A stretch of 64,000 bases of DNA from contig OZ024743.1 of the NCBI GenBank assembly GCA_964016885.1, positions 195,176,001 through 195,240,000 on the forward strand. Direction: 5' to 3'. Within the stretch, counting starts at the first letter, position 1. Each line of letters begins with the position of its first letter. Below the pieces are notes generated by a model. The model ran no database searches. It was given only the letters and a program-made list of their open reading frames with translations, and had not been told where the DNA came from. Below are positions 5,888 through 45,753 of this stretch, in pieces. Source of the stretch: Eledone cirrhosa. Lineage: Eukaryota. A program made the position numbers and the translations under genes.

Positions 5888-5921
5888 GTTGAAAAGGAGT
5901 GGAAAAGATCGGAAGGACCAC

Positions 5922-7917
5922 TCACCTTATTTCTCGTAGAGGAAGGACGGTTTTTCCATCCTTTTCACTGCTTGTGGCCTCCTCAGGAAGGATGTCCTTA
6001 TAAATCCTCCTGGAGAGTGCTTGTCGGAAGTCTCCGATGTCTTTGGGGAATTTTTGTTTTGTGTCATGTACGTTCTCTGTGTGATGCGAGTGATTTGTAT
6101 GTGTGGAGGTGGTGTGAATTTTAGGGTTGTTGTGTAGTCTTTTTCTGTGATGTTGGTGTTGTGTTGGATGTAGTGTAATAATTGCTTGTTGTTCAAATTT
6201 AATGCTGTGTAGTGTGTATCCTTTTGGTTGTTTTGTTTTGATTGCGTTTGTTGTGGGTTTGTATCTGTTTCGCATTTTGGTGACTTTTGTGGTGTAGGTG
6301 ATGGTGGTGTTGAGGTTAATGATGGTGATGGTGTTGGTGTTTGGGGTGATGGGGTTGGTGATGCTGGTGTGGATGGTGGCATATCTGTCCTAACTTTTTT
6401 GTTTGTTAATTTATTTGTTTCCCTCTGTATTTTGTTTTTGGAGGGGGAAGGAAGAGAATTTTTTTCTTTTTTGATTTTTTTTTTTCCTGATACCGTTTCC
6501 CACTCCTCGTCGTCACAATCTGTCTCCAGTTGTGATATGCCGGGGAGTAAAAAATCCTCCACGGGCGTTAGTTTTGGTTGTAGCGTGGTAGATGATGTAG
6601 GCACTGGTGCTAGTTCTGAAGCGTTGGGTGGTGGTGGTGTTGGTTTTGCTGGTGGTGGTGGTGTTGGTTTTGCTACTGTTGCTGGGGTTGTTGCTGTTAT
6701 AGTTGCTTCTGTTGTTGCTCCTACAGTTGTTGCTGTCATCTCTGCTACTGGTGGTGTTGATGGTTGAGTCACTGGGGTGGGTAGGAGAGGTGGCGTCAAC
6801 CTTTTATCCTGAGGACAGAAAGCCCTTAGGTGGGTTCCTTCACCACAAACGACACACCTAGGCCTTCTGCCCTCGACAATTACAGTGAGGTGGCTGCCGT
6901 CAGTGAGGTCTATTACCTCTGGGATCTCCTCAATGCTTTTTTGGTCCGCTTGAATCAGGAGCTCCATCCCAGATCCGGACCAGTTCTCCTGGTTTTCTTT
7001 TGCTATTGCTATTATCTTTGTGTTGGCTTCGATGCCGGCGAGGACGGCCGCTATTAGCCAGGGAATTTCGATGGCCGGTGGAACGTGTGTCACCCTGATC
7101 TTTACGAGTCTCTGGCCACAATAGCTTGGGACGAGTGTGAAGTCGTCACTTCTTAATGGGGCCATGTAGTGTTCTCTAGCCTCCTCTGGTGTTTCAAAGA
7201 ACACGTCCACGGTTCCATACTTCTGCCCACGTCTGATGTAGGTTTTTCTTGCCCACACATGTCACAAAGCTTTTTTGGATTTGGGACTCGGATGCCCGTT
7301 CCACTCGGCGTGATTTTACATTAATTGTTCTATACGACACGGTGCATAGGCGCCGATGCTCCATTCTATTAAGTGTGTGTGTGGGGGGGAAGGGGGCTGA
7401 CCCTGAACCCATCTTTCCTTTCCATATTTTTGGCATTTTCTAATTCCTCCTGAGTTACCGTAAATGCTTCGCACTGTTTTGCTACTCTGGCAAAACTCAG
7501 GATGGTTTTTTTAATGTCATTGTTGCTGTTGTTGTTATCGTTATTTTTGTTATTATTAATTTTAGTTTCAGTTGTGGTGGTGGTGACTTCAGTGGTGTTC
7601 GGTATGAATGAGTCTATTTTGCTTGAAAACATTTCGACATCACGAGTTGATATATTTTTTCCTTTTGTTTCTGTTGTCGCTGTGGTGGTCGGGGTGGTGG
7701 TTGTAGCGGTGGTGGTGGTGGTGGCGGCTTTAACACCTGCAGTCATTGGCAATGGCGGGAAATGAATGTCTGCCTGATACAAATTTAAAATATTGCTACT
7801 GCTTATATTTATTTTAGTGTTGGCAAACGTAGTAACATTTACAATTGTGGTGTCGGTGTGAGGTGTTAATTTGTGAGGAAGGCTCTCAGCTGATTGGTGC
7901 AGAGGTGAATTAGCCAT
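5922..7917 (-). pseudogene. E1 ORF1 (nucleic-acid-binding protein with zinc knuckle); frameshifted
   Basis: Overlapping ORF pieces 7369-7917, 7194-7436, 5927-7258 and 5922-6275. Contains CX2CX4HX4C (CVVCGEGTHLRAFC) and Thr/Asn- and Pro/Thr-rich low-complexity regions. Confidence 0.85.
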
Positions 7918-12900: not shown

Positions 12901-15416
12901 GAGCGTAGACTGCCACCAGTCTAAAGGCACCACGTTATTGTTAACGTCCAGGACCACCGACTTCCCGTCCCGGTCCCGGAAGATTGACCTTACCTCGAGA
13001 TCCAGGCCTTTCCTAAACAACACTGCATCCCCACTTCCCATTCCCGGCTGACTAACAGATGCTAAGATATGATAGTCGTCGAAAATGGGGGCTAGTGCGC
13101 AAGTGTCGGAAATCCTGGTCTCGCTGACGGCAATTACATCCATTTCTAGAGACCTGAGATCGTTGAGCAGGTGGCCCTGCTACCAGGACGATCCCAGGCC
13201 TCGAACATTTAAACTTCCTACTCTTAATACGGCCATGTTGGCAGGTTAAAAGAGAGAGAGGAGAGGTTTACTTACCTTCCGGGCTCTTGTGAAGGTCGGG
13301 TGGTTCAACCTCCATAGTTGGTGGGGTTTCTTTTGGGAACCCCTTTAAAAGTCTTGAAGTGGGTTTTACGTTCGGGATTCCCACGTCCCGAGGAAAGCTG
13401 TCTCGTATCTCTTTGTATAAATCGAGCGACATTCGCACCAGAAACAAATCTTCCGGCACGCGAAATGTGCTCGATTAAAAATCTCCTCTTCTTTTTGTAT
13501 ATTTTCACTTCGTGCTGCGAGGGCCATCAGTTCCTTGTTGGCCCTCCTGACGAGCACGAAGTTTTGTATGTTTTGTTGGTGTGATTTTATTTGTTTGTGA
13601 TGGCTTTGGTAGTGTTGTTTCGGTTGTATCTGTATTTGTTGTGAGTGCGGTGTCTGTGGTTTCAGATGTTTGTGCGTGTATTTGTTCTTGCGTCTGTTTA
13701 GGTTGTTTGCGTTGAGGGATTCTGGTGATGGTGATGGTGGTGTTGATGTTGGTGTTATTGGAGAGATGTTTGCGTGGGTGCATTTTTATTGTGGGTGATT
13801 TTGTGCTTTGTTGATTTTTTTTTCTTTTTCTGTTTCCTTTTTTGTATTTTGGGGGATTTTAGTTTTCCCTCATCTTCACTACTGGTAGATGAGGGGTCTG
13901 TGTCTGTAAGTGTGTCTGTGTGTATGTTTATGTTTTTATTGATGTGTGTATTTGGGGGGGGGGATTTGACAACTTTCCTCGTTTCCCCCCTGGGTGGTTA
14001 ATGTTGGCGGTGGTCTTTCTATTGGTGTGGTTGTTGGTGGTTTTGCCGGTGCTGGTGTTAGTTGTGGTCCTCGCCCCGGCGTCGGCAGCAGTCGGTCCTT
14101 TCGACCCCTTGCATCTTTCAGCAGTTGAGGGCAGAAGGCGCGCAAATGGGCTTTTTACCCACAAACAAAACAATGCGGTCTTTTGCCCTCAGTCATAATA
14201 TGAAACCGTCTCATTCTGAAGGCGGATGTGGTCCGGGATTGTCTTCACATTCTCGGGGCTGATCTGGAAAATGTATCTCCAGGTCAACACCAGACCAGTC
14301 CTCTCTGGCTGTTCTTGTCACTTCTATCGGGATGGTATCCGTCCCCTCCACAATCACACATCCCAGAAGCCACCACATGTCAAGTCCTGGTGGGATTCTG
14401 GGAATGCGGAGACGGGCCGTTCTTTTCCCATGTGGGAGGGGTACATTATGACCTTGCTGGTTATGCAAGGAGTAATAAAGTGTTTCATAGCAAGGGCTTC
14501 TGAGTTGAACATCACCGAAATGGTGCCGTACTGTCTGCCCCTCGCTATATATTCGGTGTCATCTCTGATGCACCTCAGCGCGACTTCGACATCTGCTTGT
14601 GGAATTAAATCTGCTCTTTTGGTTTTTGCTGAGATGCATCTATAATGCACCGATCTGCGCTCCACTGCCTCAATACCTTCTAACGGGACAGTAAAGCTGG
14701 CCGAGGTTTGCTCTTGCTTGATCAGCTTCCAGGCCTGGGCCAACTTTTCATCTTTGTTTGTGAGGTCCATGTTGAAGCATGGCCTCTTTTTTGCTGCTGC
14801 CGCAGCGAAAGTGTTCTTTTTTTCGTTAGGGGTGTTGTTGTTGTCGTTGTTCTTGTTGGTGTTGTTGTTACCACTGTCGCTGTTATCATTGTTTTCTTTG
14901 GTGCCGGCGTTGTTCTCGGTGCCGTTAGTATTGTTGCTGTTGGTGTTGTCGCCATTTGTTTTCATGTTAGTGGTGTAGATATTGTTGTTGCATTTGTCAT
15001 TTTTTCTGTTATCTGTATTTTTGTTGTCGCTGTTACTGTCATTTTTTTCAAAATTAGAGTTCTCAGTGTTGTTATCATTGCTGTCTTTGTTCACATTGTT
15101 TGTGGTGGTGTTTATTGTATCAATTTCTGTTAATTCGCCGTAGCGCTCCTCTCAACTTCCACGTCATTGTCGCACGACAGCAGACATGTTGCTGGAGGCG
15201 TGGCTCAGCCATGTTTAATTTTTTTTTCGATAATTTTTTTAAAATGTAAGAGTTTTAATATTTGGGCCAATAGGCCCAAATATTATTCTTTCCCCTTCAC
15301 AGGGCAAAGCCCAAGGGCTTGTATGCGTTACGCAACAACAAAAATTCAATAAATAAGTTTTGACAGGTAAATAAGTAAACTTACGAGAGCGAGAAAAAAG
15401 ACGTCAGTTCAGACTC
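9955..15416 (-). mobile_element. Tx1 family B, full-ended, degenerate, internal RT deletion (E2)
   Basis: ORF1 ~15212-13268 (Asn-rich N-terminus, ARGRQYGTISVMF). ORF2 13236-10207. About 370 bp of RT are missing at ~11718 relative to E8. (AAT)n on both sides. Confidence 0.85.
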
Positions 15417-18400: not shown

Positions 18401-20535
18401 TGGCCCGTATCGCGAGATCCAAACCTCTCCGAAAAAGCACAGCAACTCCTCCCCCCGATCCGGACGGCTGGGAGATGCGTACAAATCGTAGCCGCCGAAG
18501 ATCGGTGCGAGGCCCGTGCTTCGGAGATTCTGGTCTCGCTGATAGCTACAACATCTATGTTTAGTGACCTGAGGTCGTTGTGCAGGTGGCCCTGCTTCCA
18601 TGACGACCCCAAGCCACGCGCATTTATGCTGCCTATTCTGAGTGATGTCATGTTGAAATGGAGTGGAAAAGATGGGAAAGACCACTTACCCTACTTCTCG
18701 TAGAGGAAGGATGGTTTCTCCATTCTTTTCACTGCTTGTGGCCTCCTCCGGAGGGATAATGATGGTGATGGTGTTGGTGTTTGTGGTGATGGCGTTGGTG
18801 TTTGTGGTGATGGGGTTGGTGATGCTGGTGTGGAAGGTGGCATATCTGTCCTAACTTTTTTGTTTGATAGTTTATTTGTTTCCCTCTGTATTTTGTTTTT
18901 TTTGGGGGGGAGGGAAGAGAATTTTTTGCTTTGTTGGTTTCTTTTTCTTTTTTTCTTTTTTCCTGATACCGTTTCCCACTCCTCGTCGTCACAATCTATT
19001 TCCAGTTGCGATAGGCCGGGAATGGAACATCCTCCAAAGGCGTTGGTTTTAGTTGTTGCGTGGTGGATGATGTAGGCGCTCGTGGTAGTTCTGGCGCATT
19101 GGGTGATGGTGGTGTTGGTTTTGCTACTGTTGCTGCGGTTGTTGCTGTTACAGTTGCTTCTGTTGTTGCTGCTACAGTTGTTGCTGCCATCTCTGCTGCT
19201 GGTGGTGTTGATGGTTGAGTCACTGGGGTGGGTAAGAGAGGTGGCCTCAACCTTTTAGCCTGAGGGCAGAAAACCCTTAGGTGGGTTCCTTCACCAGAAA
19301 CGACACACCTAGGCCTTCTGCCCTCGACGATTACGGTGAGGTGGCTGCCGTCAGTGAGGTCTATTACCTCTGGGATCTCCTTAATGCTTTTATGGTCCGC
19401 TTGGATCAGGAGCTCCATCTCAGATCAGTACCAGTTCTCCTGCTTTTCTATCGCTATTTCGATTATCTTGGTGTTGGCCTCGATGCCGGCGAGGACGGCC
19501 GCTATTAGCCAAGGAATTTCGATGACCGGTGGAACGTGGGTCACCCTGATCTTCACGAGTCTCTGGCCACAATAGCTTGGGACGAGTGTGAAGTCGTCAC
19601 TTCTTAATGGGGCCATGGAGTATTCTCTGGCCTCCTGCGGTGTTTCAAAGAACACATCAACGGTCGCATATTTCTGCCCACGTCTGATGTGGGGTTTTTT
19701 TGCCCATACATGTCCCAAAGCTTTTTGGATTTGGCACTCGTATGCCCGTTCAACTTGATGCGATTTTATGTTTATCGTCCGATAAGACACTGTACATAGG
19801 CGCCGATGCTCCATTTTATTAGGTGGGAGGGGGAGGGAGGCTGACCCTGTACCCATCTTTCTTTACCATTTCTTTGGCTTCTTCTAATTCCTCCTGAGTT
19901 ACATGTAATGCTTCGCACTGTTTTGCTACTCTGGCAAAACTCAGGGTGGTTTTCTTAATTTAATTGTTGCTGTTATCGTTATTTTTGGTATTGTTAATTT
20001 TAGTTTCAGTTGTGGTGGTGGTGGCGTCGGTGGTGTTCGGTGTGGAAGAGTTCATTTTGGTTGAATTCATTTCGATATCAAGAGTTAATTTTTTTTTCTT
20101 TTGTTTCTGTTTTCGCTGTGGTGGTGGTGGTGGGGGTGGGGGTGGCGGCTTTAACACCTGCAGTCATTGGTAATGGCGGGATATGAATGTCTGCCTGAGA
20201 CAAATTTAAAATATTGCTACTGCTTATATTTTTAGTGTTGGCAAACGTAGTAATATTTACAATGGTGGTGTCGGTGTGAGGTGTTAGTTTGTGAGGAAGG
20301 TGTGACCCTGAGTCGGCCATGATTTTTCAAAGATTTTTTTTTTGTTTGATAATATAAAAAGTTTAAATTTTGGGCTCAAGGCTTCAATCTTTTTGAGTGT
20401 CCTTTTCAGAAATCAATGTATGTGCACTCATATCCAATTAACAATAAAAATTTACCATAAATGGCAACTTTAAACAACTGAAAATAACAAACATTTGCGC
20501 AGCTCACGATGATACGATTTACTACGTAAGACGCC
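15437..20535 (-). mobile_element. Tx1 family A (A2 subfamily), full-ended with multiple internal deletions (E3)
   Basis: Colinear with E1. ORF1 20320-18686 and ORF2 18651-15683. At least seven deletions. (AAT)n on both sides. Confidence 0.9.
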
Positions 20536-21695: not shown

Positions 21696-21904
21696 GGCGA
21701 CCTACTTAGTAAATCGTATCATCGTGAGCTCCGCAAAGGTTTGTTATTTCCGTTTGTTAAAAATTGCCATTTATGGAAAATTTTTATTGTTAAATATATA
21801 TAAGCGCACATACATTGTTTTCCGAAAAGACACCCAAAAAGATTGGAGCCTTGTGCCCAAAATTTAAACTTTTATGATTATCAAAAAATTTCTTTGAAAA
21901 AAAA

Positions 21905-23886
21905 ATGGCTAATTCACCACTGCACCAGGCAGCTGAAAGCCTTTCTCACAAATTAACACCTCACACCGACACCAACATTGTAAATGATTATACGTCTTCC
22001 AACACAAACAATTTAAGCACTAGCAATATTTTAAATTTGTCTCAGGCAGACATTCATTTCCCGCCATTACCAATGACTGCAGGTGTTAAAGCCGCCACCA
22101 CCACCACCACCACCACCACCGCGACAACCCCCACCACCACCACAACCGCGACAACAGAAACAAAAGGAAAAAATAAATCAACTCGTGATGTCGAAATATT
22201 TTCAACCAAAATGGACTCTTCCAAACCGAACTTCACTGTCGTCACCACCACCACAACTGAAACTAAAATTAATAATAACAAAAATAACGATAGCAACAAC
22301 AACAACAATGAAATTAAAAAAACCACCCTGAGTTTTGCCAGAGTAGCAAAACAGTTCGAAGCATTTACGGTAACTCAGGATGATTTAGAAAATGCCAAAC
22401 AAATGGTAAAGAAAGATAGGTACAGGGTCACCCCCCCCCCAAACCTAATAAAATGGAGCATCGGCGCCTATGCACCGTGTCGTATCGAACAATAAATGTA
22501 AAATCGCGCCGAGAGGAACGGGCATCCCTGTCCCAAATCCAAAAAGCTTTGGGACATGTGTGGGCAAGAAAAACCCACATCAGACGTGGGCAGAAGTATG
22601 GAACCGTGGACGTTTTCTTTGAAACACCGGAGGAGGCTAGAGAACACTCCATGGCCCCATTAAGAAGTGACGACTTCACACTCGTCCCAAGCTATTGTGG
22701 CCAGAGACTCTAAAGATCAGGGTGACCCACACTCCACCGGCCATCGAAATTCCCTGGCTAATAGCGGCCGTCCTCGTCGACATCGAAGCCAACACAAAGA
22801 TAATACCAATTGCAAAAGAAAAGCAGGAGAACTGGTCCGGATCTGGGATGGAGCTCCTGATCCAAGCGGACCAAAAAAGCATTGAGGAGATCCCAGAGGT
22901 AATAGACCTCACTGACGGCAGCCACCTCACCGTAATTGTCGAGGGCAGAAGGCCTAGGTGTGTCGTTTGTGGTGAAGGAACCCACCTAAGGGCTTTCTGC
23001 CCTCAGGCTAAAAGGTTGACGCCACCTCTCCTACCCACCCCAGTGACACAGCCATCAACACCACCAGTAGCAGAGATGGCAGCAACAACTGTAGCAGCAA
23101 CAACAGAAGCAACTATAACAGCAACAACCCCAGCAACAGTAGCAAAACCAACACCACCACCACCAGCAAAACCAACACCACCATCACCCAATGCTTCAGA
23201 ACTAGCACCAGCACCTACACCATCCACCACGCCACAACCAAAACTAACGCCTGTGGAGGATTTTCCACTCCCCGGCCTATCACAACTGGAGACAGATTGT
23301 GACGACGAGGAGTGGGAAACGGTATCAGGAAAATAAAAAAGAAACCAAAAAAGAAAAAATTCTCTTCCTTCCCCCAATACAGAGGGAAACAAATAAATAA
23401 ACAAACAAAAAAGTTAGGACAGATATGCCACCATCCACACCAGCATCACCAACCACATCAACCCAAACACCAACACAATCACCATCATTAACCCCAACAC
23501 CACCATCACCTACACCACAAAAGTCACCAAAATGCGAAACAGAAACAAACCCACAACAAACGCAAACAAAACAAAACAACCAAAACGATACACACTACAC
23601 ACCATTAAATTTGAACAACAAGCAATTATTACACTACATCCAACGCAACACCAGCATCACAGAAAAAGACTACACAACAACCCAAAAATTCACACCACCT
23701 CCACACATACAAATCACTCGCATCACACAGAAAACGTACATGACACTAAAACAAAAATTCCCCAAAGACATCGGAGACTTCCGACAAGCACTCTCCAGGA
23801 GGATTTATAAGGACATCCTTCCTGAGGAGGCCACAAGCAGTGAAAAGGATGGAAAAACCGTCCTTCCCCTACGAGAAGTAAGGTAA
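21905..23886 (+). pseudogene. E4 ORF1, frameshifted
   Basis: Pieces 21905-22495, 22453-22713, 22695-23336 and 23425-23886. Zinc knuckle CVVCGEGTHLRAFC. Confidence 0.85.
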
Positions 23887-23922
23887 GTGGTATTTCCCAT
23901 CTTTTCCACTCCTTTCAACATG
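23881..23922 (+). promoter_or_regulatory. Inter-ORF signal: AG|GTAAGT splice-donor-like motif, pyrimidine tract and CAAC-ATG
   Basis: The motif is present at the same position in 7 of 8 Tx1 copies from three families. Function is inferred. Confidence 0.55.
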
Positions 23923-26900
23923 ACATCACTCAGAATAGGCAGAATAAATGCGCGTGGCTTGGGGTCGTCATGGAAGCAGGGCCACCTGCTCAACGACCTC
24001 AGGTCACTAAACATAGATGTAGTGGCCATCAGCGAGACCAGAATCTCCGAAGCACGGGCCTTCGCACCGATCTTCGGCGGCTACGATTTGTACGCATCTC
24101 CCAGCCGTCCGAGATCGGGGGGGGGGGGGTGGAGTTGCTGTGCTTTTTCGGAGAGGTTTGGATCTTGCCATACGGGCCATCTTCCTGGACCCAGAAGGTA
24201 AGTTGGTGGTGCTGGACGTGACCAGCGGAGACGGGCAAGCTTTCAGGTTAGTGGCAGTCTATGCCCCGACAGGAGACCTTTCTTGGAACGTCCCGCTCTT
24301 TAGTGTTAGTGGGCGACTGGAACGGGATCTTAGATGCACGCTGGGATTGTGTGGGATTAGTGGATAGGGAAGGAGGGTGCAAGAGTCTCACCAACCTGCT
24401 CAGGGGTTTTGAACTGTCTGATAGGTACCGAATGGATTTCCCGAATGTACCAATGTGGACTTGGACAAATCGCATAGGGTCATCCAGATCATATCTAGAT
24501 AGAGTATTTTGTAGGAAAATAGATAGGTCTAGCATAGGCTGTCCACAATTCAAGATAGTCAGCTACACGGACCACAAATTCGTGATTTGTATGCTTGACT
24601 TAGATAGGCTTCATAGACGAGGACCCGGCTACTGGAAGCTGAACGCGTCTTTACCAGTGCGCAAGGCCTACAGAGACCGGATTAGCGAACTAGTTAAGCG
24701 GGCGTTGACGGGGGCCATCTTCAACAACAAGTGGTGGTTTGCTCTGAAATGAGCAATTAGAATAGAGTCCATTAGGTTTAGTAAGGCTTTAGCAATAGAG
24801 AAAAATAGAGCAGAGGGAGAATTAGTTAGAAAATTAGACGAGGCGCTTAGCAAAGGCATCGCGACCGACGTACTTGCGGCGAAATTGGCCATTGACCAAT
24901 TCTTCAATGCAATGCACGAAGGCTGCGTTGTCAGAGCTAGGGTGCGTGCTCTCAGACACGAGGGGACGAAAGCCGTTCAATGGGCCCGAGTGGCGGAGAC
25001 GCGTCGTGGCGATTAAGCCACAATCCGGTCTTTGGTGGACCACGACGGACGCATGCTATCGATCCCGGGCAAATGTGTGAAGCTTTTCAGCGACACTTCG
25101 CTCAACTGTTCGGGGGCAGTGGCGGGCCGGATCGAGGGATGGACTTTAGTGTCTACCTCGACGGACTGCCGCGGCTTTCGGCCTCTGAGGCGGAGTGTTG
25201 CGAAAAGCCGATAACAACCGCTGAAGTACGGGAGGTAATGACTGGCTGCACAAGGGGTAAATCGCCTGGTTTGGATGGTCTGCCCTATGAACTTTACGTA
25301 CAAATGCCAGACTTGTTCGGAGGCCTCTTGGCGGACGTCTACTGCAACTGGCAACAGAACGGGAGAATTTCCCAGCTCTGTGAGCCGAGGAGCGTTGGCC
25401 CTGCTGAGAAAGGATCCGAACAAGGGGGATAACATAGATAACTTTAGGCCCATAACTCTGCTAAACACAGAGTTCAAGATTTTGGCCAAGGTGCTAGCAA
25501 AGAGGTTGGCGCTTGTCGTTGGTGGTCTGGTGGCAGAGGCACAGACATGCGCCATTCCTGACAGATCCATCCATGACAACCTCCACCTCATGCGATACAT
25601 CGTAGAGAGGGTAGCTAGGGAACCTGGCACGGGTGGGTCTTTGATCAATTTAGATCAGTCGAAAGCCTTCGATAGGGTCGACCATCGTTACCTAGCGGCA
25701 GTCCTGAGGGCGGCTGGCTTTGGGCCCGTCTTCAGAGGCTGGATCACTGCCATGCACAGCGACATCTGCTCTGTAGTGAGTGTGAACGGTCACCTTTCGG
25801 AACCAACAACATCATGCGCTCGGTCCGCCAAGGATGTCCCCTCTCGTCCCTATTGTACGTATTGACTCTCGAGCCATTACTGCATAAACTGGAGACGTTG
25901 AGGGGCTCCCGCGCGAACTAGGATGCGGAAGATCCGTGTAGCATATGCGGACGATGTCACCGTAGTGGTGTCGAACGCCAAACACATCGAGGCGATCGGC
26001 ACTACACTAAGAGAATACGAAGCGGTGACAGGAGCAATGATCAACCAGGAAAAGTCAGTGGGCCTGCAGTTCGGCACCTGGAGAGGCAGCTCCATGCCGT
26101 CCAATAGCGTCGTCGCGCGCTGGACGGACGGACCGGTTAAATTGCTAGGGGTCTGGTTCGATCCAGACCTCCAGACGGACAAAAACTGGGAAGAGGTGAC
26201 GAGCAGTGTGGCTTCTCTCACCCAGAAATGGGCTGAGAGGAAGCTATCCCTGAAAGGTCGAGCGGAGGTGGCTAACGCGTACATCGCATCCGTCATCTAT
26301 TACCGCCTGACCGTCTTACCTTGTCCTAAGCCCCGCCTGACTCCGCTGGAGCGTTTGCTCTTTCGCTTCTTGTGGAAGGGACGCGCTCCGATGGTAAGGG
26401 GGTCCATCTGCTGTCAACACCCGCTACGTGGAGGGCTGGGCATGCTGTGGCTGATGATGCGCAGACACGCGCTCAGGCTACGACATCTCCACCTCTTCCT
26501 TGACGGTGATCAGGTGTGGTCGCCGTTTGCTAGACACGTTTTTCCCCAGCTCGTCTGCTTGACGGAGCTGCGGTCCTGGGTCAAGCGAAGACCGAGAGGG
26601 AGCGCTTGGAGACTGGAATGTCTTCAGGCGCTCGAGCCCTCGACCAATCGGGCAATGTGATCGGTGGAAACTCCACCTTGGCGTTCTATAGAGGATTAGT
26701 GGAGGCTAAGAGCGACGACGTACTTGGAGAAACTCTAGGCGTCGACGAAAATCAACTAGCCAATCTCTTCGGAAGGACTTTCGGGCCGGGGCCTCGGGAC
26801 AACTTCCAGAAATCCCTGGCCTGGCAGTGCTACCGGGGAGCTTTGCCAGTTCGGGATAAACTCTACAGGCATGGAGGTGCCGTCAGCCGGGCATGTCCGA

Positions 26901-27310
26901 GATGCACACAGGGCGACGAAACTGTCCCGCACGCACTCGTCCAGTGTCCGAGCATTGCTGACTTGTGGGTTTATGTCGAACACCTGCTGTCACGTGTAGG
27001 ACGGATCCAGCTATCAGCTGAGTCCATCGTGAGGATTGCCCCACCCTCTTCCTTTAGCCGGGAAGGGCAGGCAGTTTTTATCTGTCTGGTGGCCATGGCG
27101 AAAGAGATAGTATGGTGGACACGTTTGAAAGGGCTGAAGATGAGCACTTACCTCTTCGGTGATGCCCTGATTAACTTTTTCAAATTTCATTTGAAAAGGA
27201 AAATCAGGGTAGAGAGGGAAGTGCTCTCTTCCCAGCATTTTGTTGAAAGATGGGTGAGAGAAGCAAGTATGGCCCGAATGAATGGGCCTTCTCTGAGTAT
27301 GTGTCTGTAA
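23920..27310 (+). pseudogene. E4 ORF2 (APE-RT-CCHC), multiple frameshifts and stops
   Basis: INARGL, GDWN, TDH, FRPITLLN, LDQSKAFD, YADD and CPRC..ETVPHALVQC across successive ORF pieces. Confidence 0.9.
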
Positions 27311-27553
27311 ATTAAAGGTGGAAAACTGGGAGAGGGCACTTGCCCTGGTGGTCAGGGTCACTGCGGTCTTTTAATGGGCTCTCTCCACAAATGTCCATCG
27401 GAAGTCTCCCCCCTATTGTGACATTTTTCTTTGCTATTTTATTTCATCCTCTGTTTTTTTTAAACGCAGAAATGCCTATTTGTACCGTCCTGTATTGTCC
27501 TGTACTGTCCTTAATGTCTACTTTATGTAAACCCTTGTGGTTAATAAAGAAAA

Positions 27554-27606
<53 letters not shown>

Positions 27607-32595: not shown

Positions 32596-35500
32596 GGCGA
32601 CATACGTAGTAAATCGTATCATCGTCAGCTCCGCAAATATTTGTTATTTTCAGTTGTTTAAAATTGGCATTTATGGAAAATTTTTATTGTTAACTATATA
32701 TAAGTGCACATACATGGTTTTCTGAAAAGGACACTGAAAAAGATTAGGGCTTTGTGCCCAAAATGTAAACTTTTATAATTATCAAACATTTCTTTGAAAA
32801 CATCATGGCTGACTCGCAGCTGCACCAAGCAGCTGAGAGCCTTCCTCACAAACTAACACCTCACACCGACACCACCATTGTAAATATTACTACGTTTGCC
32901 AACACTAAAAATATAAGCAGTAGCAATATTTTAAATTTGTCTCAGGCAGACATTTATATCCCGCCATTACCAATGACTGCAGGTGTTAAAGCCGCCACCC
33001 CCACCACCACCACCACCACAGCGAAAACAGAAACAAAAGAAAAAAAAATTAACTCTTGATATCGAAATGAATTCAACCAAAATGAACTCTTCCACACCGA
33101 ACACCACTTACGCCACCACCACCACAACTGAAACTAATATTAACAATACCAAAAATAACGATAACAGCAACAATTAAATTAAGAACACCACCCTGAGTTT
33201 TGCCAGAGTAGCAAAACAGTGCGAAGCATTACATGTAACTCAGGAGGAATTAGAAGAAGCCAAAGAAATGGTAAAGAAAGATGGGTACAGGGTCGGCCTC
33301 CCTCCCACCTCCCACCTAATAAAATGGAACATCGGCGCCTATGCACCGTGTCTTATCGGACGATAAACATAAAATCGCATCAAGTTGAACGGGCATCCGA
33401 GTCCCAAATCCAAAAAGCTTTGGGACATGTATGGGCAAAAAAAATCCACATCAGACGTGGGCAGAAATATGGAAGCGTGGACGTGTTCTTTGAAACACAA
33501 CAGGAAACCAGAGAACACTCCATGGCCCCATTAAGAACTGACGACTTCACACTCGTCCCAAGCTATTGTGGCCAGAGACTTGTGAAGATCAGGATGACCC
33601 ACATTCCACCGGCCATCGAAATTCCCTGGCTAATAGCTGCCGACCTCGCCGGCATCGAAGCCAACACCAAGATAATCGAAATAGCGAAAGAAAAGCAGGA
33701 GAACTGGTGCTGATCTGGGATCGAGCTCCTGATCCAAGCGGACCATAAAAGCATTGAGGAGATCCCAGAGGTAATAGACCTCACTGACGGCAGCCACCTC
33801 ACCGTAATCGTCGAGGGCAGAAGGCCTAGGTGTGTCGTTTGTGGTGAAGGAACCCACCTAAGGGCTTTATGCCCTCAGGCTAAAAGGTTGAGGCCACCTC
33901 GCTTACCCACCCCAGTGACTCAACCATCAACACCACCAGCAGAAGAGATGGCAGCAACAACTGTAGCAGCAACAACAGAAGCAACTGTAACAGCAACAAC
34001 CGCAGCAACAGTAGCAAAACCAACACCACCACCACCCAACGCGCCAGATCTAGCACCAGCGCCTACACCATCCACCACGCCACAACCAAAACCAACGCCT
34101 GTGGAGGATTTTCCACTCCCCGGCCTATCACAACTGGCGACAGATTGTGACGACGAGGAGTGGGAAACGGTATCAGGAAAAAAGAAATAAAGAAACCAAA
34201 AAAGAAAAAAAGATTTTCCCTCCCCCTCCAAAAACAAAATACAGAGTGATACAATTAAACTATCAAACAAAAAAGTTTGCCACCATCCACACCAGCTTTG
34301 CCAACCCCATCACCACAAACACCAACACCATCACCATCAGTAACCCCAACACCACCATCCCCAACACCACAAAAGTCACCAAAAAGAGAAACAGAAACAA
34401 ACCAACAACAAACGCAATTATTACACTACATCCAACACAACACCAGTATCACAGAAAAAGACTACACAACAACCCAAAAGTTCACACCACCTTCACACAT
34501 ACAAATCACTCGCATCACACAGAAAACGTACATGACACTAAACCAAAAATTCCCCAAAGACATCGAAGACTTCCGACAAGCACTCTCCAGGAGGATTTAT
34601 GAGGACATCCTACCGGAGGAGGCCACAAGCAGTGAAAGGGATGGAGAAACCATCCTTCCTCAATGAGAAGTAAGCTAAGTGGTCTTTACCATCTTTTCCA
34701 CTACATTTCAACATGACCTCACTCAGAATAGGCTGCATAAATGCGCGTGGCTTGGGGTCGTCATGGAAGCAGGGCCACCTGCTCAACGACCTCAGGTCAC
34801 CTCAGGCGTCGACGAAAATCAACTAGCCAATCTCTTCGGAAGGACTTTCAGGCCGGGGCCTCGGGGTAACTTCCAGAAATCTCTGGCCTGGCAGTGCTAC
34901 CGAGGAGCTGTGCCAGTTCGGGATAAACTCTAGAGGCATGGAGGTGCCGTTGCCGACCGGGCATGTCCTAGATGCGCGCAGGGCGACGAAACTGTAATGC
35001 ACGCACTCGTCCAGTGACCGAGCATTGCTGACTTGTGGGTTTATGTCGAACACCATTGCTGTTGCGTGTGGGACGGATCCAGCTATCAGCTGAGTCCACC
35101 GTGAGGATTGCCCCGTCCTCCTCCTTTAGCCGGGAAGGGCAGGCAGTTTTTATCTGTCTGGTGGCCATGGCGAAAGAGATAGTATGGTGGACACGTTTGA
35201 AAGGGCTGAAGGCGAGCATTTACCTCTTCAGTGATGCCCTGATTAACTTTTTCAAATTTCCTTTGAAAAGGAAAATCAGGGTAGAGAGGGAAGTGCTCTC
35301 TTCCCAGCATTTTGTTGAAAGATGGGTGAGAGAAACAAGTATGGCCCGAGTAAATGGGCCTATTCTGAGTATGTGTCTTTAAATTAAAGGTGGAAAACCG
35401 GGAGAGGGCACTTGCCCTGGTGGTCAGGGTCACTGTAGCCTTTTAATGGGCTTTCTCCACAAATGTCCTTCGGAAATCTCCCCCCTATTGGGGAATTTTT

Positions 35501-35672: not shown

Positions 35673-38600
35673 GGTGCTGCTGAAAAAGGGACCACTTCTT
35701 TTGCAGGTCTCGCCCGAAATATCGAGACAGTGTTAGTCACAGAGGAGCAGATGGCAGTTGCAAGGGCTATGGTGACAAGAAGCGCAAATAGAGTCTCCCT
35801 GAAACTTCCACCCGATTTTTTTCAAGGACCAGCAGCTACTGACGGTGCCTTACCGCACCGTAAGCAAAATCTCACATCGGGTGGAGAGAGCCACGTAGGC
35901 TCAAATCCAAAAGGCCTTGGGGTGCGTCTGGGCACGGAAAACCCACATCACCCGAGGCAGAAAGTACGCCACAATAGTCGTACATTTCTCCTCCCCCCAA
36001 GAAGCAAAGTCTCACTCTTTGGAAACCCTAAAGGGTGAGGAGATAGTCTTAGTGCCCTCCTACTGCGGGCAGAAAATTGTTAGGGTCAAATCGACCCAGA
36101 TCCCACCCGACGTGCTCATACCTTGGCTGACATCCTCGTGGACACACCCATGACCAGCGAAAGGGACTGTTCTACTGTCCCTTCACCACACGATCAAGGT
36201 AAGTGACCCTTTCTCACTTGCCCCGTTTCTCATCCAACATGGCCGTAATCAGAATAGGCTGTATAAATGCACGTGGCCTGGAGTCATCTTAGAAGCAGGG
36301 TCACATGCTCAACGACCTCAGGTCACTAAACATAGATGTGGTGGCCATCAGTGAAACCAGAATCTCCGAAGCACAAGCCTTCGCAACGATCTTCGGCGGC
36401 TACGATGTTTACGCATCTCCCAGCCGTCCAGGATCGTAAGGAGGGGTTGCCGTCCTTTTTCGGAGAGGCTTGGATCTCGCGATACGGGCCATATTCCTAG
36501 AACCAGAAGGTAAGTCGGTGGTGCTGGACGTGACCGGCAGCGAAGGCAATGCTTTCAGGCTAGTAGCCGTCTACGCCCCAACAGGGGCAGGACGGCCAGA
36601 ATTCTTCAGACGTCTAGAGCCCTTTCTTGGAACGTCCCGCTCTTTAGTGTTAGTGGGCGACTGGAACGGTATCTTGGATGCACGCTGGGATCGTGTGGGG
36701 CTAGTGGATAGGGGAGGAGGGTGCAAGAGCCTCACCAACCTGCTCAGACGTTTTGAACTGTCTGACAGGTATCGGCTGGATCACCCGAATGTGCCAATGT
36801 GGACATAGACAAACCGTATCGGGTCATCCATATCGTATCTCGATAGGGTATTCTGCAGAGAACTAGATAAAGCTAGTATAAGTTGTCCACAATTTAAAAT
36901 AGTCGACTACACAGACCACAAATTTGTGATCGGTGAGATCGACATAGACAGACTTCATAGACAAGGGCCTGGTTACTGGATGCTGAACGCATCTTTCCCT
37001 GCGCGCAAAGCCTACAGAGACCGGATTAGCACATTAGTTAAGCGGGCGTTGACGGGAGCTGTCAACAACAGGTGGTGGTTCGCCCTGAAAAGGCCAATTA
37101 AAGTAGAGTCGATTAGGCTTAGCAAAGAGTAGTGAGAGAGGAAAATAGAGTAGAGAGAGAGCTAGTTAGAAAGCTACAATAGGCGTTTGGGACAGGCATC
37201 GCAACCGACGTGCTTGCGGCGAGATTGGCACTCGACCAACTCTTCAGCGCAAAACATGAAGGCTGCGTTGTCAGAGCTAGAGCGCGTGCTCTGAAACACG
37301 AGGGGACCAAAGCCGTCCAATGGGCCCGGTGGCAGAGGCGCGACATGGCAACAAAGCCACAATTCGGCCTTTGTCTGACCAAAACGAGTGCGTGATGCTC
37401 GAACCCGAGCGGATGTGTGAAGCTTTTCAGCAGCACTTTACTGAACTGTTCGGGAGCGGCGGTGGCCCGGATCGGGGCATAAACTTTAGTGCATACCTCG
37501 ACGGAGTGCCTCGGCTCTCGACGACCGCAGCACAGTGTTGCGAAAAGCCAATAACAGCCGGTGAAATACGGGAAGCGATGGCTAGCTGAACAAGGGGTAA
37601 ATCGCCAGGTTTGGATGGTCTACCCTACGAGCTTTATGCATTTATGCCAGACTTGTGCGGTGACCTCTTGGCAGACGTCTACTGCAACTGGCAGCAGAAC
37701 GTGAGCATTTCCAGTTTTGTGAGCCGGGGAGCAGTGGCGCTGCTGAGAAAAGACCCGAACAAGGGGAATGTTAACTATAATATCAGGCCCATAACCCTGC
37801 TAAACGCAGAGTTCAAAATTTTCGCCAAGGTGTTAGCAACGAGGTTGGCGCTTGTCGTCAAGGGTCAGGTGGAAGAGGCGCAGACATACGCCATTCCGGA
37901 CAGATCCATACACGACAACCTCCACCTCATTCGATACATAATAGAGAGGGTGGTTAAGGAACCTGGCACGGGTGGGGCCTTGATCAACTTGGATCAATCC
38001 AAAGCATTCGATATGGTAGCCCATCGGTACCTGGCGGCGGGCCTCGAGGCAGCCGGTTTCGGGCCCTTTTCAAGGGTTGGATCGCAGCAATGTACAGCGA
38101 CATCTACTCAGTTGTGAAAGTGAGCGGTCACCTGTCGAAGCCGCTCGGCATCATGCGCTCAGTCCGCCAGGGTTGTCCCCTCTCTTTCCTCTTGTACGTA
38201 TTGGCTCTCGATCCGTTACTGTACAAACTGGAGGCGATGAGGGGCGTCCCATGCGAACTAGGATGCGAGAAATCCGAGTCGGCTTACGCTGACGACGTCA
38301 CCGTGGTGGTGTCGAGCACCAGATACGTCCAGATGCTCGGCACCACTCTTAAGAAATACGAAGCGGTGACAGGAGCAAAGATAAACCACGAAAAGTCGGT
38401 GGGCTTGCAGCTCGGCACCTGGAGAGTCAAGTCCATGCCATCCGACAGCGTCGTGGGGCGTTGGAGGGACGGATCGGTTAAATTGCTTGGGGTCTGGTTC
38501 GGACCAGACCTCCAGATGGAGAAAAACTGAAACGAGGTGACGAGCAGGGTGGGCTCCCTCACCCAGAAATGGGCCGAGAGGAAGCTGTCCCTGAAAGGCC

Positions 38601-39974: not shown

Positions 39975-42900
39975 GAATGCCATGGTTGACGGAGGCTCGG
40001 GTCTGTAAGGTATAGTAATTTTTAACCGCTATAACAATTGTAAATTGTTTAAAAATTTAACTAAATTGTAGACAAAAACACCTACCTCCTCGTGAGAGGG
40101 GCCTTTCTGCCCGTTATTTGGCCCTTCGGGGTTAAATAACCGCTTATTGGGGTTTTGTGCCCAATATTTATTTTAAACCAAAAAAACATGGCTACAGATA
40201 AGAATTTTCACAAGTCACTCCCACGCATTCCGTCTTCTTCCTCAATCGTCACTACACCAGAGAGAAGATTGTCTCCCCCCTCCCTTCTCTAAATGTGCCT
40301 CTCTCCCTCCCTTCTCTTTCGCAAGCGACGCCAGTAAAGAAAAAGAAAAATATAGTTTCTGATAGTTTCCAAGAGCACGTGCAAAACGTGGAACATTTCT
40401 CCACGACGACGACAACGACGAAATATGTGTGCGGTAAATACGGAAAGCCATTTCATTCGTCTGACGTCATGAATAATAGCAGTAGCAGCCGTAATAACAG
40501 CAGCTGCAGCAACAGTGACAAGGAAAACAACAGTAGCAGCCGCAACAGCACCAGCATCAGCATAAACAACAACAGCATTAGCAGCAACAGCAACGACAAC
40601 AGCAGCAGCAGCAGCAACAACAACAACAACCACAGCAACAGCGGCCGCGGCAGTCGTAGTTCCAGCAGCAACAACACAAGTGACAGCAGCTCTGACGACA
40701 ACAACAACAACAACAACAACAAAGAAAAACCAATCTCGTTTGCAGGTATCGCAAAGAACCTGGAAGCCATCCTTATAACAAATGAGGAATTACAGGAAGC
40801 AAAGAAGATGGTGACGAAAAGCGTTCACCGAACAATCTGCAAGGCAGCCGCAAAATGTTTCGAAACCCAACAGCACTGTACGGTCACGTACCGTACAGTA
40901 AACACAAAATCCCGGAGGGTTGAAAGAGCCACAGAGGCTCAAATGCAAAAGGCCTTAGAGTCTGTGTGGCAGCGGAAAACGCATATCACCCGAGGCAAGA
41001 AATATGCCACTGTGGACGTGCTTTTTGTCACACCCCAGGAGGCAAAGGCTCAATCCTTAGTGACCCTAAGGAGCGAGGAAATGGTGCTGGTGCCCTCCTA
41101 CTGCGGACAAAAAATTGTGAGGGTCAAACTGACCCCCCCCCCCCGGGATGGCCCCTTGGCTGGCCGAGTCTGTCCTCGTCGGAATCGAGGACAAAACAAC
41201 TGTACTGCAAGTACAGAAAAAAGTACGAGAAGATTGGGTCGGCACCTCCATTGAGATGTTAATCCAAACCAACCAGGAGTGCATCGAAGCTATCCCGGAT
41301 GTGACAGACTTCGATAACGGCACTCATTTGCGCATAAGTGTTGAGGGCAAACGCCCGAAATGCTTTCGCTGTGGATCGAAGACTCACATCAGGGACTTCT
41401 GCAATGAGAAGACCCTGAGAAAGGAGACCCGCCCCCTCCTTCCGAAACCGGCTCCACTGCTACCAGCAACAGGACAGGCGGCAACCAGGAAGGTTAGGTC
41501 CGTGGCACCCATACCCACGCCACGGAAATCAATAACAGCAGCAGCAGTAGAAGTATTAACAACAACAACAGCAATACCAACTGCAGCTGCAACAGAGACT
41601 CCACTGCAAGCCCACCGCAAACAACAACACCTTCAACACCACCACCACAAGCACCAGCATCGAAAACACAACAACAAAACACACACACCCTGCAACAACG
41701 ACAAGAAAATAGCAGAACCACAACGCATCCCCAGAAAAAGAAATACACAGCAATAAATACACACAACAAGAAACTAATGGCTTACATAATTAAACACGCA
41801 GACATTTCACAGAACGACTACATAATACCAGCACCATTCAGAACACCAACGAACATAAGACTGGTAAGAATAGCACAGAAACAATACACAAACATTAAAA
41901 CGAAATTCCCCAACGTAGTTGGTGATTTCAGAGACCTAGGAGGGACACTCAACCGGAGAATATATTCGGATATACTCACAGAAGAGCCGACGACCAGCCG
42001 AAGGGACGATTCAACGGTCCCTTCACAAGACGATCAAGTGAAAAGGGATGGACAAACCATCCTTCCTCAACGAGAAGTAAGGTAAGTGGTCTTTCCCATC
42101 TTTTCCACTCTTTTTAACATGACCTCACTCAGAATAGGCAGCATAAATGTGCGTGGCTTGGGGTCGTCATGGAAGCAGGGCCACCTGCTCAACGACCTCA
42201 GGTCACTAAACATAGATGTAGTAGCCATCAGCGAGACCAGAATCTCCGAAGCACGGGCCTTCGCACCGATCTTCGGCGGCTACGATGTGTACGCATCTCC
42301 CAGCCGTCCTGGATCGGAGGGAAGAGTTGGTGTGCTTTTTCAGAGAGGTTTGGATCTCGCCATACGGGCCATCTTCCTGGACCCAGAAGGTAAGTTGGTG
42401 GTGCTGGATGTGACCAGCGAAAACGGGCAAGCGTTCAGGCTAGTGGCCGTCTATGCCCCGACAGGAGCAGGGCGGCCTGATTTCTTCCGGCGCCTGGAGA
42501 CCTTTCTTGGAACGTCCCGCTGTTTTTGTGTTAGTGGGCGACTGGAACGGGATCTTAGATGCACGCTGGGACTGTGTGGGATTAGCGGATAGGGGAGGAG
42601 TGTGTAAGAGCCTCACCAACCTGCTCAGGCATTTTGAACTGTCTGACAAGGACCGTTTGGATTTCCCGAATGTGCCAATGAGGACTTGAACAAATCGCAT
42701 AGGGTTATCCAGATCATATCTAGATATAGTATTTTGTAGGGAAATAGATAAGTCTAGCATAGACTGTCCACAATTTAAGATAGTCAGCTACACGTACCAC
42801 AAATTCGTGATCTGTGTTCTTGACTTAGATAGGCTTCATAGACGAGGACCCGGCTACTGGAAGCTAAACCCGTCTTCACCAGCGCGCAAGGACTACAGAG

Positions 42901-45722
42901 ACCGGATTAGCGAACTAGTTAAGCGGGCGTTGATGGGGGCCATCGTCAACCACAGGTGGTGGTTTGCTCTGAAAAGAGCGATTAGAATAGAGTCCATTAG
43001 GTTTAGTAAGGCTTTAGCAATAAAGAAAAATAGAGCAGAGGGAGAACTAGTTAGAAAATTAGACGAGGCGCTTAGCAAAGGCCTGGCGACCGACGTACTT
43101 GCGGCGAAATTGGCACTTGACCAATTCTTCAATGCAAAGCACGAAGGCTGCGTTGTCAGAGCTAGGGTGCGTGCTCTCAGACACGAGGGGACGAAAGCCG
43201 TTCAATGAGCCCGAGTGGCGGAGGCGAGACGTGGCAACAAAGCCACGATTCGGCCTTTGGTGGAATTCGACGGGCGCATGCTACTCGATCCCGGCCAAAT
43301 GTGTGAATCTTTCCAGTGACACTTCGCCCAGCTGTTCGGGGGCAGCGGCGGGCCGGATCGAGGGATGGACTTTAGTGTCTACCTCGACGGACTGCTGCAG
43401 CTCTGGGCCACTGATGCTGAGTGTTGCGAAAAGCCGATAACAGCATAAGGGTAAATCGCCTGGTTTGGATGGTCTGCCCTATGAACTTTACGTACAAATG
43501 CCAAACTTGTTCGGAGGCCACTTGGCGGACGTCTACTGAAACTGGCAACAGAACGGGAGAATTCCCAGCTCTGTGAGCCGAGGAGCGGTGGCACTGCTGA
43601 GAAAGGATCCGAACAAGGGGGATAACATAGATAATTTCAGGCCCAAGATTTTGGCCAAGGTGCTAGCAAAGAGGTTGGCGCTTGTCTTTGGTGGTCTGGT
43701 GGGAGTGGCGCAGTCATGCGCCATTCCCGACAGATCCATCCACAACAACCTCCACCTCATGCGATGCATCGTAGAGAGGGTAGCTAGGGTATCTGGCACG
43801 GGTTGGTCCTTGATCAATTTAGATCAGTCGAAAGCTTTCGATAGGATCGATCATCGTTACCTAGCGGCAGTCCTGAAGGCGGCTGGCTTTGCGCCCGTCT
43901 TCAGAGGCTGGGTCGCTGCCATGCACAGTGACATCTGCTCTGTGGTGAGAGTGAATAGTCACCTTTCAGAACCGTTCAACATCATGCACTCGGTCCGCCA
44001 AGGATGTCCCCTCTCGTCCCTCTTGTAAGTATTGACACTCGAGCCATTACTGCACAAACAGGACGCGTTGAGGAGCGTCCCGCGCGAACTAGGATGCGGA
44101 AGATCCGTGTCAGCATATGCGGACGATGTCACCGTAGTGGTGTCGAACGCCAAACACATCGAGGCGATCGGCACTACACCAAGAGAATACGAAGCGATGA
44201 CAGGAGCAATGATCAACCAGGAAAGTCAGTGGGCCTGCAGCGCGGCACCTGGAGAGGCAAGTCCATGATGTCCAACAGCGTCGTCGGGTGCTGGACGGAC
44301 GGACCCGTTACATTGCTAGGTGTCTGGTTCGGTCCGGACCTCCAGACGGAAAAAACTGGGACGAAGTGACGAACAGGGTGGCTTCTCTCACCCAGAAATG
44401 GGCCGAGAGGAAGCTATCCCTGAAAGGTCGAGCGGAGGTGGCTAACGCGTACATCGCGTACACCTGCTACCACCTGAATGTCGTACCTTGTCCTAAGCCC
44501 CGCCTGACTGCGCTGGAGCGTTTACTCTTTCGCTTTTTGTGGAAGGGACGCGCTCCGATGGTCAGGAAGTCCATCTGTTGTCAACACCCGCTACGTGGAG
44601 GGCTGGGCATGCCGTGACAGATGATGCGCAGACACGCGCTCAGGCTACGACATCTCCACCTCTTCCTCGACGGTGATTAGGTGTGGTCGCTAGACGCAGC
44701 TTTCTCCAGCTCGTTTCCTTGACGGAGCTGCAGTCCTGGATCAAGCAAAGACCGAGAGGGAGCGCTTGGAGACTGGAATGTCTTCAGGCGCTCACAGCGC
44801 TCGACCAATCGGGCAATGTGATCGGTGGAAACTCCACCTCGGCGTTCTATAGAGGATTAGTGGAGGGGAAGTGCGACGACGTACTTGGGGAAAATCTAGG
44901 CCTCGACGAAAATCAACTAGCCAATCTCTTCGGAAGAACTTTCGATCCAGGGCCTATCGACAACTTCCAGAAATCCCTGGCCTGGCTATGCTACTGAGGA
45001 GCCTTGCTAGTTCGGGATAAACTCTACAGTCATGGAGGTGCCGTCAGCCGAGCATGTCCGAGGTGCGCACAGGGAGACGAAACCGTCCTGCATGCACTCG
45101 TCCAGTGTCCTAGAATTGCTGACCTGTGGGTTTATGTCGAACACTTGCTGTCGCGTGTAGGACGGATCCGGCTATCAGCTGAGTCCATGGTGAGGATTGC
45201 CCCCGCCCTCTTCCTTTAGCCGGGAAGGGCAGGAAGTTTTTATCTGTCTGGTGGCCATGGCGAAAGAGATAGTATGATGGACACGTTTGAAAGGGCTGAA
45301 TACGAGTACTTACCTCTTCGGTGATACCCTGATTAACTTTTTCAAATTTCATTTGAAAAGGAAAATCAGGGTAGAGAGGGAAGTGCTCTCTTCCCAGCAT
45401 TTTGTTGAAATATGGGTGAGAGAAGTAAGTATGGCCCGAGTGAATGGGCCTACTCTTAGTATGTGTCTGTAAATTAAAGGTGGAAAACTGGGAGAGGGAA
45501 CATGCCCTGGTGGTCAGGGTCACTGTGGCCTTTTAATGGGCTTTCTCCACAAATGTCCCTCCGAAGTCTCCCCCCTATTGGGGAATTTTTCATTGTTATT
45601 TTTTATTGCATCCTCTGTTTTTGTTTTTTACACGCAGAAATGCCCATTTGTTATGCCCCGTTTTGTCCTGTACTGTACTTAATGTCTACTTTATGTAAAC
45701 CCTTGTGGTTAATAAAGAAAAT
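39975..45722 (+). mobile_element. Chimeric Tx1: C-like 5' UTR/ORF1 joined to family A ORF2 and 3' UTR (E7)
   Basis: ORF1 40188-42085 (CFRCGSKTHIRDFC) resembles E6 rather than family A. From 42039 onward it is near-identical to E1, E4 and E5. ORF2 42119-45472 is disrupted. Confidence 0.85.
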
Positions 45723-45753
45723 ATTATTATTTTTAATTATTATTATTATTATT

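Follow-up and report, generated by a model that had tools for sequence, protein, structure and literature searches.

The window analysed here, a stretch of 64,000 nucleotides from Eledone cirrhosa, contains eight copies of L1-group LINEs with APE, RT and zinc-binding domains. These Tx1-like copies belong to several families and are packed into about 54 kb (window 2176-56130), where they chain through one another's ATT tails, whereas only 2 ORF1-ORF2 junctions were found in the flanking 200 kb. An intact ORF2 from outside the window is 1145 aa long, matches Pfam Exo_endo_phos, RVT_1 and zf-RVT, and has human L1 ORF2p as its best solved relative (E 6e-52). The closest named ORF2 relatives come from Argonauta (55-69%) and a cuttlefish (44-46%), and the nearest relatives outside the host, the P0005/P0121 group, are about 40% identical.

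ORF1 of the Tx1 clade comprises an RNA-binding domain and a CCHC knuckle. In the ORF1 proteins described here a CX2CX4HX4C pattern is visible by eye, the Pfam zf-CCHC match is weak (E 0.2), and in the atlas they lie next to clusters of zf-CCHC and ZCCHC3-RBD (0.90-0.92). Copies of family A have (ATT)n on both sides and copies of families G2, F and M have (TATC)n, a preference judged by eye, in repeats that also form the 3' tail of the element. Such flanks fit the microsatellite targeting of Tx1, which is known to insert into microsatellites (PMC4494074), and the Tx1 label, a probable assignment, rests on the ORF2 architecture and the target repeats. An Rfam search of the window gave no match. 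Two other features of the window are a different, nearly intact RT-encoding LINE (28130-31403, minus strand), RTE- or R4-like by eye, which has no Tx1-type APE start and is unrelated to the Tx1 copies, and a direct duplication of ~410 bp with 86% identity (48423-49266), which lies outside the LINE copies.

The features on which the analysis draws are the following.

5920..5927, minus strand: donor of E1, AG|GTGAGT, family A; the TGA looks copy-specific
13270..13277, minus strand: donor of E2, family C1, phase 1 (GGT AAG TAA)
18684..18691, minus strand: donor of E3, GG|GTAAGT, a family A copy with internal deletions
21696..27554 (ends approximate), plus strand: E4, full-length Tx1-like LINE of family A, with (TTA)n/(ATT)n on both sides
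23838..23840, plus strand: CAG of family A, 42 nt before the A donor, putative acceptor for chimeric family D
23881..23888, plus strand: 5' splice donor of E4, AG|GTAAGT, cut site 23882/23883, with the ORF1 stop TAA at +2..+4
23889..23919, plus strand: pyrimidine-rich inter-ORF spacer of E4
23920..23922, plus strand: ORF2 ATG of E4 (APE-RT-zinc finger protein)
24196..24203, plus strand: second AGGTAAGT, in the APE region of E4, a by-product of E-G-K codons, unconserved across families
34673..34680, plus strand: mutated donor of E5, AGCTAAGT
36197..36204, plus strand: donor of E6, family B, phase 1 (GGT AAG TGA)
39975..45780 (ends approximate), plus strand: E7, chimeric family D, inserted just after E6's 3' end and ATT tail
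42029..42048, plus strand: E7 junction at 42038/42039, B' ORF1 up to the donor position, then A sequence after CAG
42080..42087, plus strand: retained A-type donor and ORF1 stop of E7
51407..51414, plus strand: donor of E8, family C2, phase 1

A preliminary description of this DNA had reported a consensus 5' splice donor lying on the ORF1 stop, and all eight of its motif positions, as well as the second site in the APE region, were found where it had placed them. Only E5 is mutated (AGCTAAGT, read at 34673), and the two stop registers are also as described, AGG-TAA/TGA in family A and GGT-AAG-TAA/TGA in families B and C. The pyrimidine-rich spacer reported to follow the donor extends to the representatives of 14 families (75-85% C+T). 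The GT-to-ATG distance of 37-40 nt holds for the window copies (E4 37, E6 40, E7 37, E8 37, E5 38) but not as a general spacing, which is 28-47 nt across families. Other points fell away on inspection. The TAA>TGA change in E1, offered as a sign that the motif is kept up, is absent from 29 other A copies and appears private to a dead copy, and so gives no evidence of selection; the true family-level TGA stop is that of family G2. The second AGGTAAGT is correctly placed but lends no support, as it encodes E-G-K, is present in 4 of the 11 families displayed and has been lost from the remaining 7. E7 is a chimera and not plain family A. Among the variants listed for positions 23882-23891 in DNA-like runs, none reached 1%. 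In the best-supported rows listed for six contig runs no joint fell at the donor, an outcome that has no bearing on whether it is spliced.

Because dead copies evolve neutrally, selection can be read only from differences between families. Further families were retrieved with an APE-start pattern that is blind to the donor (38 matches, 30 of them read), and more were gathered by additional genome searches, giving a total of 14 Tx1-like families from one genome. In all 14, the ORF1 stop bears G|GTRRGT (xxG|GTRRGT); the register is phase 2 (AG|G TAA/TAG/TGA) for nine of them and phase 1 (G|GT AAG TAA/TGA) for the other five, and the stop that overlaps the donor is TAA, TAG or TGA depending on the family. 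The family donors match MAG|GTRAGT, the consensus of the U2-type 5' splice site. Of the AG|GTRAGT consensus originally proposed, the core donor stands, and the form shared by the families is the broader xxG|GTRRGT with position -2 free (GG|GT in J, CG|GT in one D subgroup). All ORF1s end in R or K, and the ORF2 ATG has a good start context, mostly CAACATGG, which is kept across families. At the other end of ORF2, the stop seen in L319-L337 is, in most families, a pyrimidine-preceded TAG that resembles an acceptor.

When the motif was set against its flanks, over columns -12 to +22 with the rows anchored on the motif and the stop placed independently by translation, columns -1, +1, +2, +5 and +6 were invariant and none of the other 29 were, so that the motif is indeed more conserved than the sequence around it. 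Four-fold sites of ORF2 are invariant at 8/45 positions among phase-2 families and 35/88 among phase-1 families, and are ~45-60% identical between the main groups. The rough chance that five protein-free motif positions would be retained neutrally is 0.002, or 0.01 if the +5 G is credited to stop context, with sites treated as independent and taken from one genome. The claim of conservation across Tx1 families therefore holds for the host, in 14/14 families and two phases, but not beyond it: the motif is missing from the ORF1 stop in 23 of 24 distant relatives, which are metagenome contigs with a locatable ORF2 start, out of 65 loci. The sole distant case, L191 near 1928-1936 (28% identity), has GTGAGT on its ORF1 stop, by chance or convergence. 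Presence in 1/24 distant relatives makes the trait specific to this lineage, whose boundary is drawn between the host families and the distant relatives, with the 40%-70% identity range in between. This comparison of sequences speaks for a U1-type donor on whose nucleotide sequence selection itself acts, and we are highly confident that the site is real and under selection.

The strongest evidence that the donor has been used, absent from the preliminary description, is the donor-exact junction of E7. Three independent chimeric families, D, M1 and M2, are joined out of register: each carries the 5'UTR and ORF1 of one family up to the exact donor and continues with the base after a CAG in the ORF1 end of another family, and the parents share only AG at each of the three joins. 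Family D comprises E7 and 11 other copies examined. Over the 5'UTR and ORF1, D matches B' at 91-95% identity (the ORF1 side matches A at 74%), and over the ORF2 side it matches A at 94% and B' at 83-84%. Its B' sequence runs up to the final exon base, the one preceding GTAAG, and its A sequence starts directly after the CAG located 42 nt before the A donor. The B' parent with GTAAG was seen in 14 of 20 loci read, and an intermediate retaining the B' donor in none of the 20. The first base after the join is G in 5 of the 12 D copies, a point against a splice origin, though with derived states.

In M1, the G2b-type 5' half (93-95% identical to G2b) ends at the donor and is joined to family N (ORF2 94-96% identical to N). 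An AG was predicted before the N segment, and CAG is found there in 94 of the 100 parent matches listed, of 848; this acceptor lies 23 nt from the next donor. In M2, represented by three copies found as a by-product, a G2a-type ORF1 runs to the donor and is joined to M1 after CCCCGCCAG, a second join that restores the natural N stop; L244 and L252, possibly collapsed M2, were left out of the count. The break position played no part in the detection of D and M2, whereas M1 came from a donor-anchored pattern, so that ascertainment affects its 5' break. Pyrimidine tracts are weak at the acceptors of D and M1, and this, like their short distances to the next donor, counts against a splice origin. 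As DNA footprints, all three joins connect an exon end to the base after a 3' AG, as expected of U2-type splicing. The genomic chimeras suggest that the donor has been cut by the spliceosome, and we consider it quite probable, from these footprints, that spliceosomal use of the donor produced them.

Two further observations concern the same families. ORF1 of M1 (e.g. L251, L257) reads through the retained N donor to a stop four codons into ORF2, which uncouples the donor from the stop in M1. L295 and L315 are in-register recombinants, with a G2b-type ORF1 followed by an N-type ORF1 end and ORF2; they lack a donor join, and their crossover lies ~60-75 nt before the donor.

To look for spliced copies, we searched the genome for family A, family C and the G/G'/H/I group with negative patterns, in which the exon-end letters are followed by anything but the donor; each such pattern passes only ~56% of random joins. 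The family A pattern gave 6 matches, all small indels or point changes (one, L055, judged from the matched letters alone), and the family C pattern gave 0, both as absolute counts. The G/G'/H/I pattern gave 26, of which 16 represent chimeric family M. Among these 6, 0 and 26 matches we found no copy spliced to an acceptor within its own element, no ORF1-only or ORF1-plus-3'-end copy, and no precise GT-AG deletion within one element of the kind that defines SpIREs. In individual copies, slippage has removed 4-9 nt at the donor (L051, L246, L250, L254, L258, L261). The internal deletions of E2, E3 and E5 were considered as splices and rejected, their ends showing microhomology and no GT-AG, and L143, from which the spacer is missing, was rejected because it keeps the GT and has TA microhomology. 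As the genomic copies show, the RNA that normally retrotransposes is unspliced.

An intron-like segment is also present in the 5'UTR, where it is kept in 19/19 full-length copies (found among 40 stretches). In G2-, N- and M-type copies it spans ~67 nt (GTAAGT, a T-rich stretch, TTGTAG) and lies ~30 nt from the 5' end (seen in L329, L337, L326, L330, L335 and L352-L391); H and B'/D have a similar layout.

The donor might also be spliced in cis to a late acceptor, such that ORF2 is removed and an ORF1-rich or decay-bound RNA results, with the chimeras as side products. The donor is strong and appears usable, a pyrimidine-preceded TAG stands at the ORF2 stop in B, B', C1, C2, F, N, G, G2 and M, and plant Ty1/copia elements provide a precedent (PMC5580714). 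The lack of any ORF1-plus-3'-end copy among the 6, 26 and 0 matches, obtained with patterns that pass ~56% of joins, is weak counter-evidence, since an RNA without ORF2 would not move in cis. Such splicing would, however, remove the ORF1 stop, although unspliced RNA already supplies one; ORF2 of family A ends in TAA and so has no AG there, and we identified no acceptor common to all families. We regard this explanation as unlikely, though by no means negligible. The loss of the ORF1 stop on splicing, and the lack of a copy spliced within its own element, also speak against the ORF1-only mRNA that had been suggested for these LINEs; the accompanying suggestion of a U1 site fares better, given a U1-type donor that appears to be under selection and chimeric footprints that suggest its cutting.

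Another possibility dispenses with splicing altogether, and has the motif held by protein and stop constraints (a basic last residue, a stop with G after it) and by descent, with the chimeras generated by RT template switching at AG microhomology. Every ORF1 does end in R or K, the families are related, since only one genome was sampled, template switching is known for LINEs (10.1101/2025.02.02.635956), and in-register recombinants exist in the host genome. As the shared AG is also a microhomology, template switching could use the same joins, and given the 4-9 nt slippage at the donor in single copies, D could represent a switch plus a 5-nt slip. Yet the protein-free positions are still invariant (chance ~0.01 even when +5 is discounted), the motif survives two frame shifts, both of the joins found without bias fall at the cut site, and the acceptors are CAG in 3/3 cases. 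Moreover, when the same search was applied to a control, a single position at a non-donor CAG 11 nt upstream, it returned 2 single-copy matches and no chimeric family, compared with 26 matches at the donor, 16 of them M-type. We consider this explanation improbable.

Combining these results, we favour a reading in which the ORF1 stop carries a U1-type site, tandem copies give rise to splice chimeras, and U1 protection is the benefit, and we assign it, as a whole, a probability of roughly 0.55. Read-through RNA from an upstream copy would reach the next head-to-tail copy, the upstream donor would be joined by splicing to a CAG close to where ORF1 of the downstream copy ends, and the hybrid RNA would be retrotransposed to found a chimeric family. 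That the built-in donor lets the spliceosome graft the promoter, 5'UTR and ORF1 of one family onto the ORF2 of another, and that D, M1 and M2 were so founded across tandem copies, seems likely. In the window E7 follows E6 head to tail, of 19 full-length N-type copies examined 6 sit just behind the 3' end of another element, and among the places listed there are at least four N-then-G pairs, 3-6 kb apart, and no G2-then-N tandem precursor.

A close variant of this reading keeps the use of the donor by the spliceosome, and has the chimeras formed by trans-splicing or by an RT jump onto the 3' end of the cleaved ORF1 exon. Its junctions would look identical to cis products, it would accommodate the weak acceptors and the missing precursor among the places listed, and trans-splicing has been proposed for mRNA/L1 chimeras (10.1101/2025.02.02.635956). 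Nevertheless, head-to-tail arrays are common enough (6/19) for the cis route to be simple, and a template jump needs no CAG on the 3' side, yet CAG is found at 3/3 joins; we think this variant improbable. A short intron of 37-61 nt, starting at the donor, ending at an AG within the first codons of ORF2 and fusing ORF1 to ORF2 for production of the ORF2 protein, would suit the pyrimidine-rich spacer and the first downstream AG, which is in frame in 8 of 9 phase-2 families, but is very improbable, as that AG is out of frame in I and in 5/5 phase-1 families, none of the three AGs listed for B' within ~95 nt is in frame, the good start context (mostly CAACATGG) is retained at the ORF2 ATG, and the ORF2-encoding, cis-copied product to be expected was not found in family A, whose negative pattern admits all three local acceptors of A.

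Under the favoured reading of a selected donor with tandem splice chimeras, exchange of ORF1 and promoter would be an occasional consequence of donor upkeep, and rare chimeras are unlikely to be enough to maintain the site. From day to day, the site may serve to bind U1 and so protect or balance the full-length bicistronic RNA, a role demonstrated in EVD and foamy virus; as the main daily role this is a tentative proposal, which we put at slightly under even odds. ORF1 is ~40% A, and poly(A) hexamers occur within 700 nt upstream in 12/14 families and within 1.25 kb downstream in 4/14, with none downstream in 10/14 and no hexamer conserved in position across the 14 families, which gives the proposal little direct support. 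In EVD, a Ty1/copia element of Arabidopsis, U1 makes splicing possible and also protects the full-length RNA, the donor blocking premature termination in addition to its part in splicing (PMC5580714). In foamy virus, U1 at the major splice donor suppresses premature polyadenylation independently of splicing (PMC3694450), although that donor guards one defined LTR poly(A) site, whereas the LINEs described here have no positionally conserved hexamer.

Like the window LINEs, EVD has a conserved U1 donor between structural and catalytic genes. However, EVD, an LTR element, has a single ORF and a defined acceptor, and its Gag stop arises through splicing (PMC5580714), whereas the window LINEs carry the stop inside the donor; in them we found neither a conserved same-element acceptor nor a stop made by splicing, the two marks of a copia-type subgenomic RNA. 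Human L1 SpIREs resemble the present case in that spliced LINE RNA was retrotransposed and its junctions are kept in DNA, but they are deletions of the 5'UTR or of 5'UTR/ORF1 and differ from the module transfer seen here (PMC5860796). In RAP1GDS1/L1PA2 and related mRNA/L1 chimeras, splicing supplies a new 5' part for the LINE, and host exons are combined with L1 (10.1101/2025.02.02.635956). SpIREs and mRNA/L1 chimeras, as described in these papers, are single or few copies, whereas the chimeras here have multiplied, and whole 5'UTR and ORF1 modules appear to pass between LINE families at a conserved donor that the element itself encodes. The present case is thus an extension of known kinds, namely U1 control in copia elements, SpIREs and spliced mRNA/L1 chimeras.

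Members of the Tx1 clade (Kibi, Koshi and crocodilian Tx1) share with the present elements two ORFs, an APE-RT-zinc finger ORF2 (1145 aa here) and insertion into microsatellites ((ATT)n or (TATC)n here), and their ORF1 is of CCHC type, as the present ORF1 may be (PMC4494074). Reticulate evolution of LINEs, with ORF1 and ORF2 of different ancestries, has been described (PMC4120745); the account invokes recombination, whether of DNA or of RNA, and 5' truncation, and the word "splicing" is absent from its main text. The repeat annotation of O. vulgaris reports 13 recently active L1-Tx1 families, and its available passages mention neither splicing nor ORF1 (PMC13282606). In the literature covered, which included passages of PMC13690279 and PMC11203168 and had Repbase entries and most subscription papers outside its scope, we found no description of a donor on the ORF1 stop of Tx1 elements, in agreement with the preliminary description, and no report of splice-type ORF1 exchange between LINE families.

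Taken together, the data indicate a real, selected and lineage-specific feature which, to judge by its DNA footprints, has been used as a splice donor. Replacement of the 5'UTR and ORF1 in LINEs is usually ascribed to unspecified recombination; here the joins are base-exact, of splice type, and located at a conserved element-encoded donor, with both parents still readable in the genome. With young families and readable parents, one route of ORF1 and promoter replacement becomes directly testable. The feature also points to a LINE with U1-dependent control between its two ORFs, an arrangement of which the literature covered offers descriptions only from LTR elements and retroviruses. If the proposed route is correct, it would amount to exon shuffling between retrotransposon families, with M2 built on top of M1. 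Host transcripts might also be affected by such donors, of which a cephalopod genome would hold thousands.
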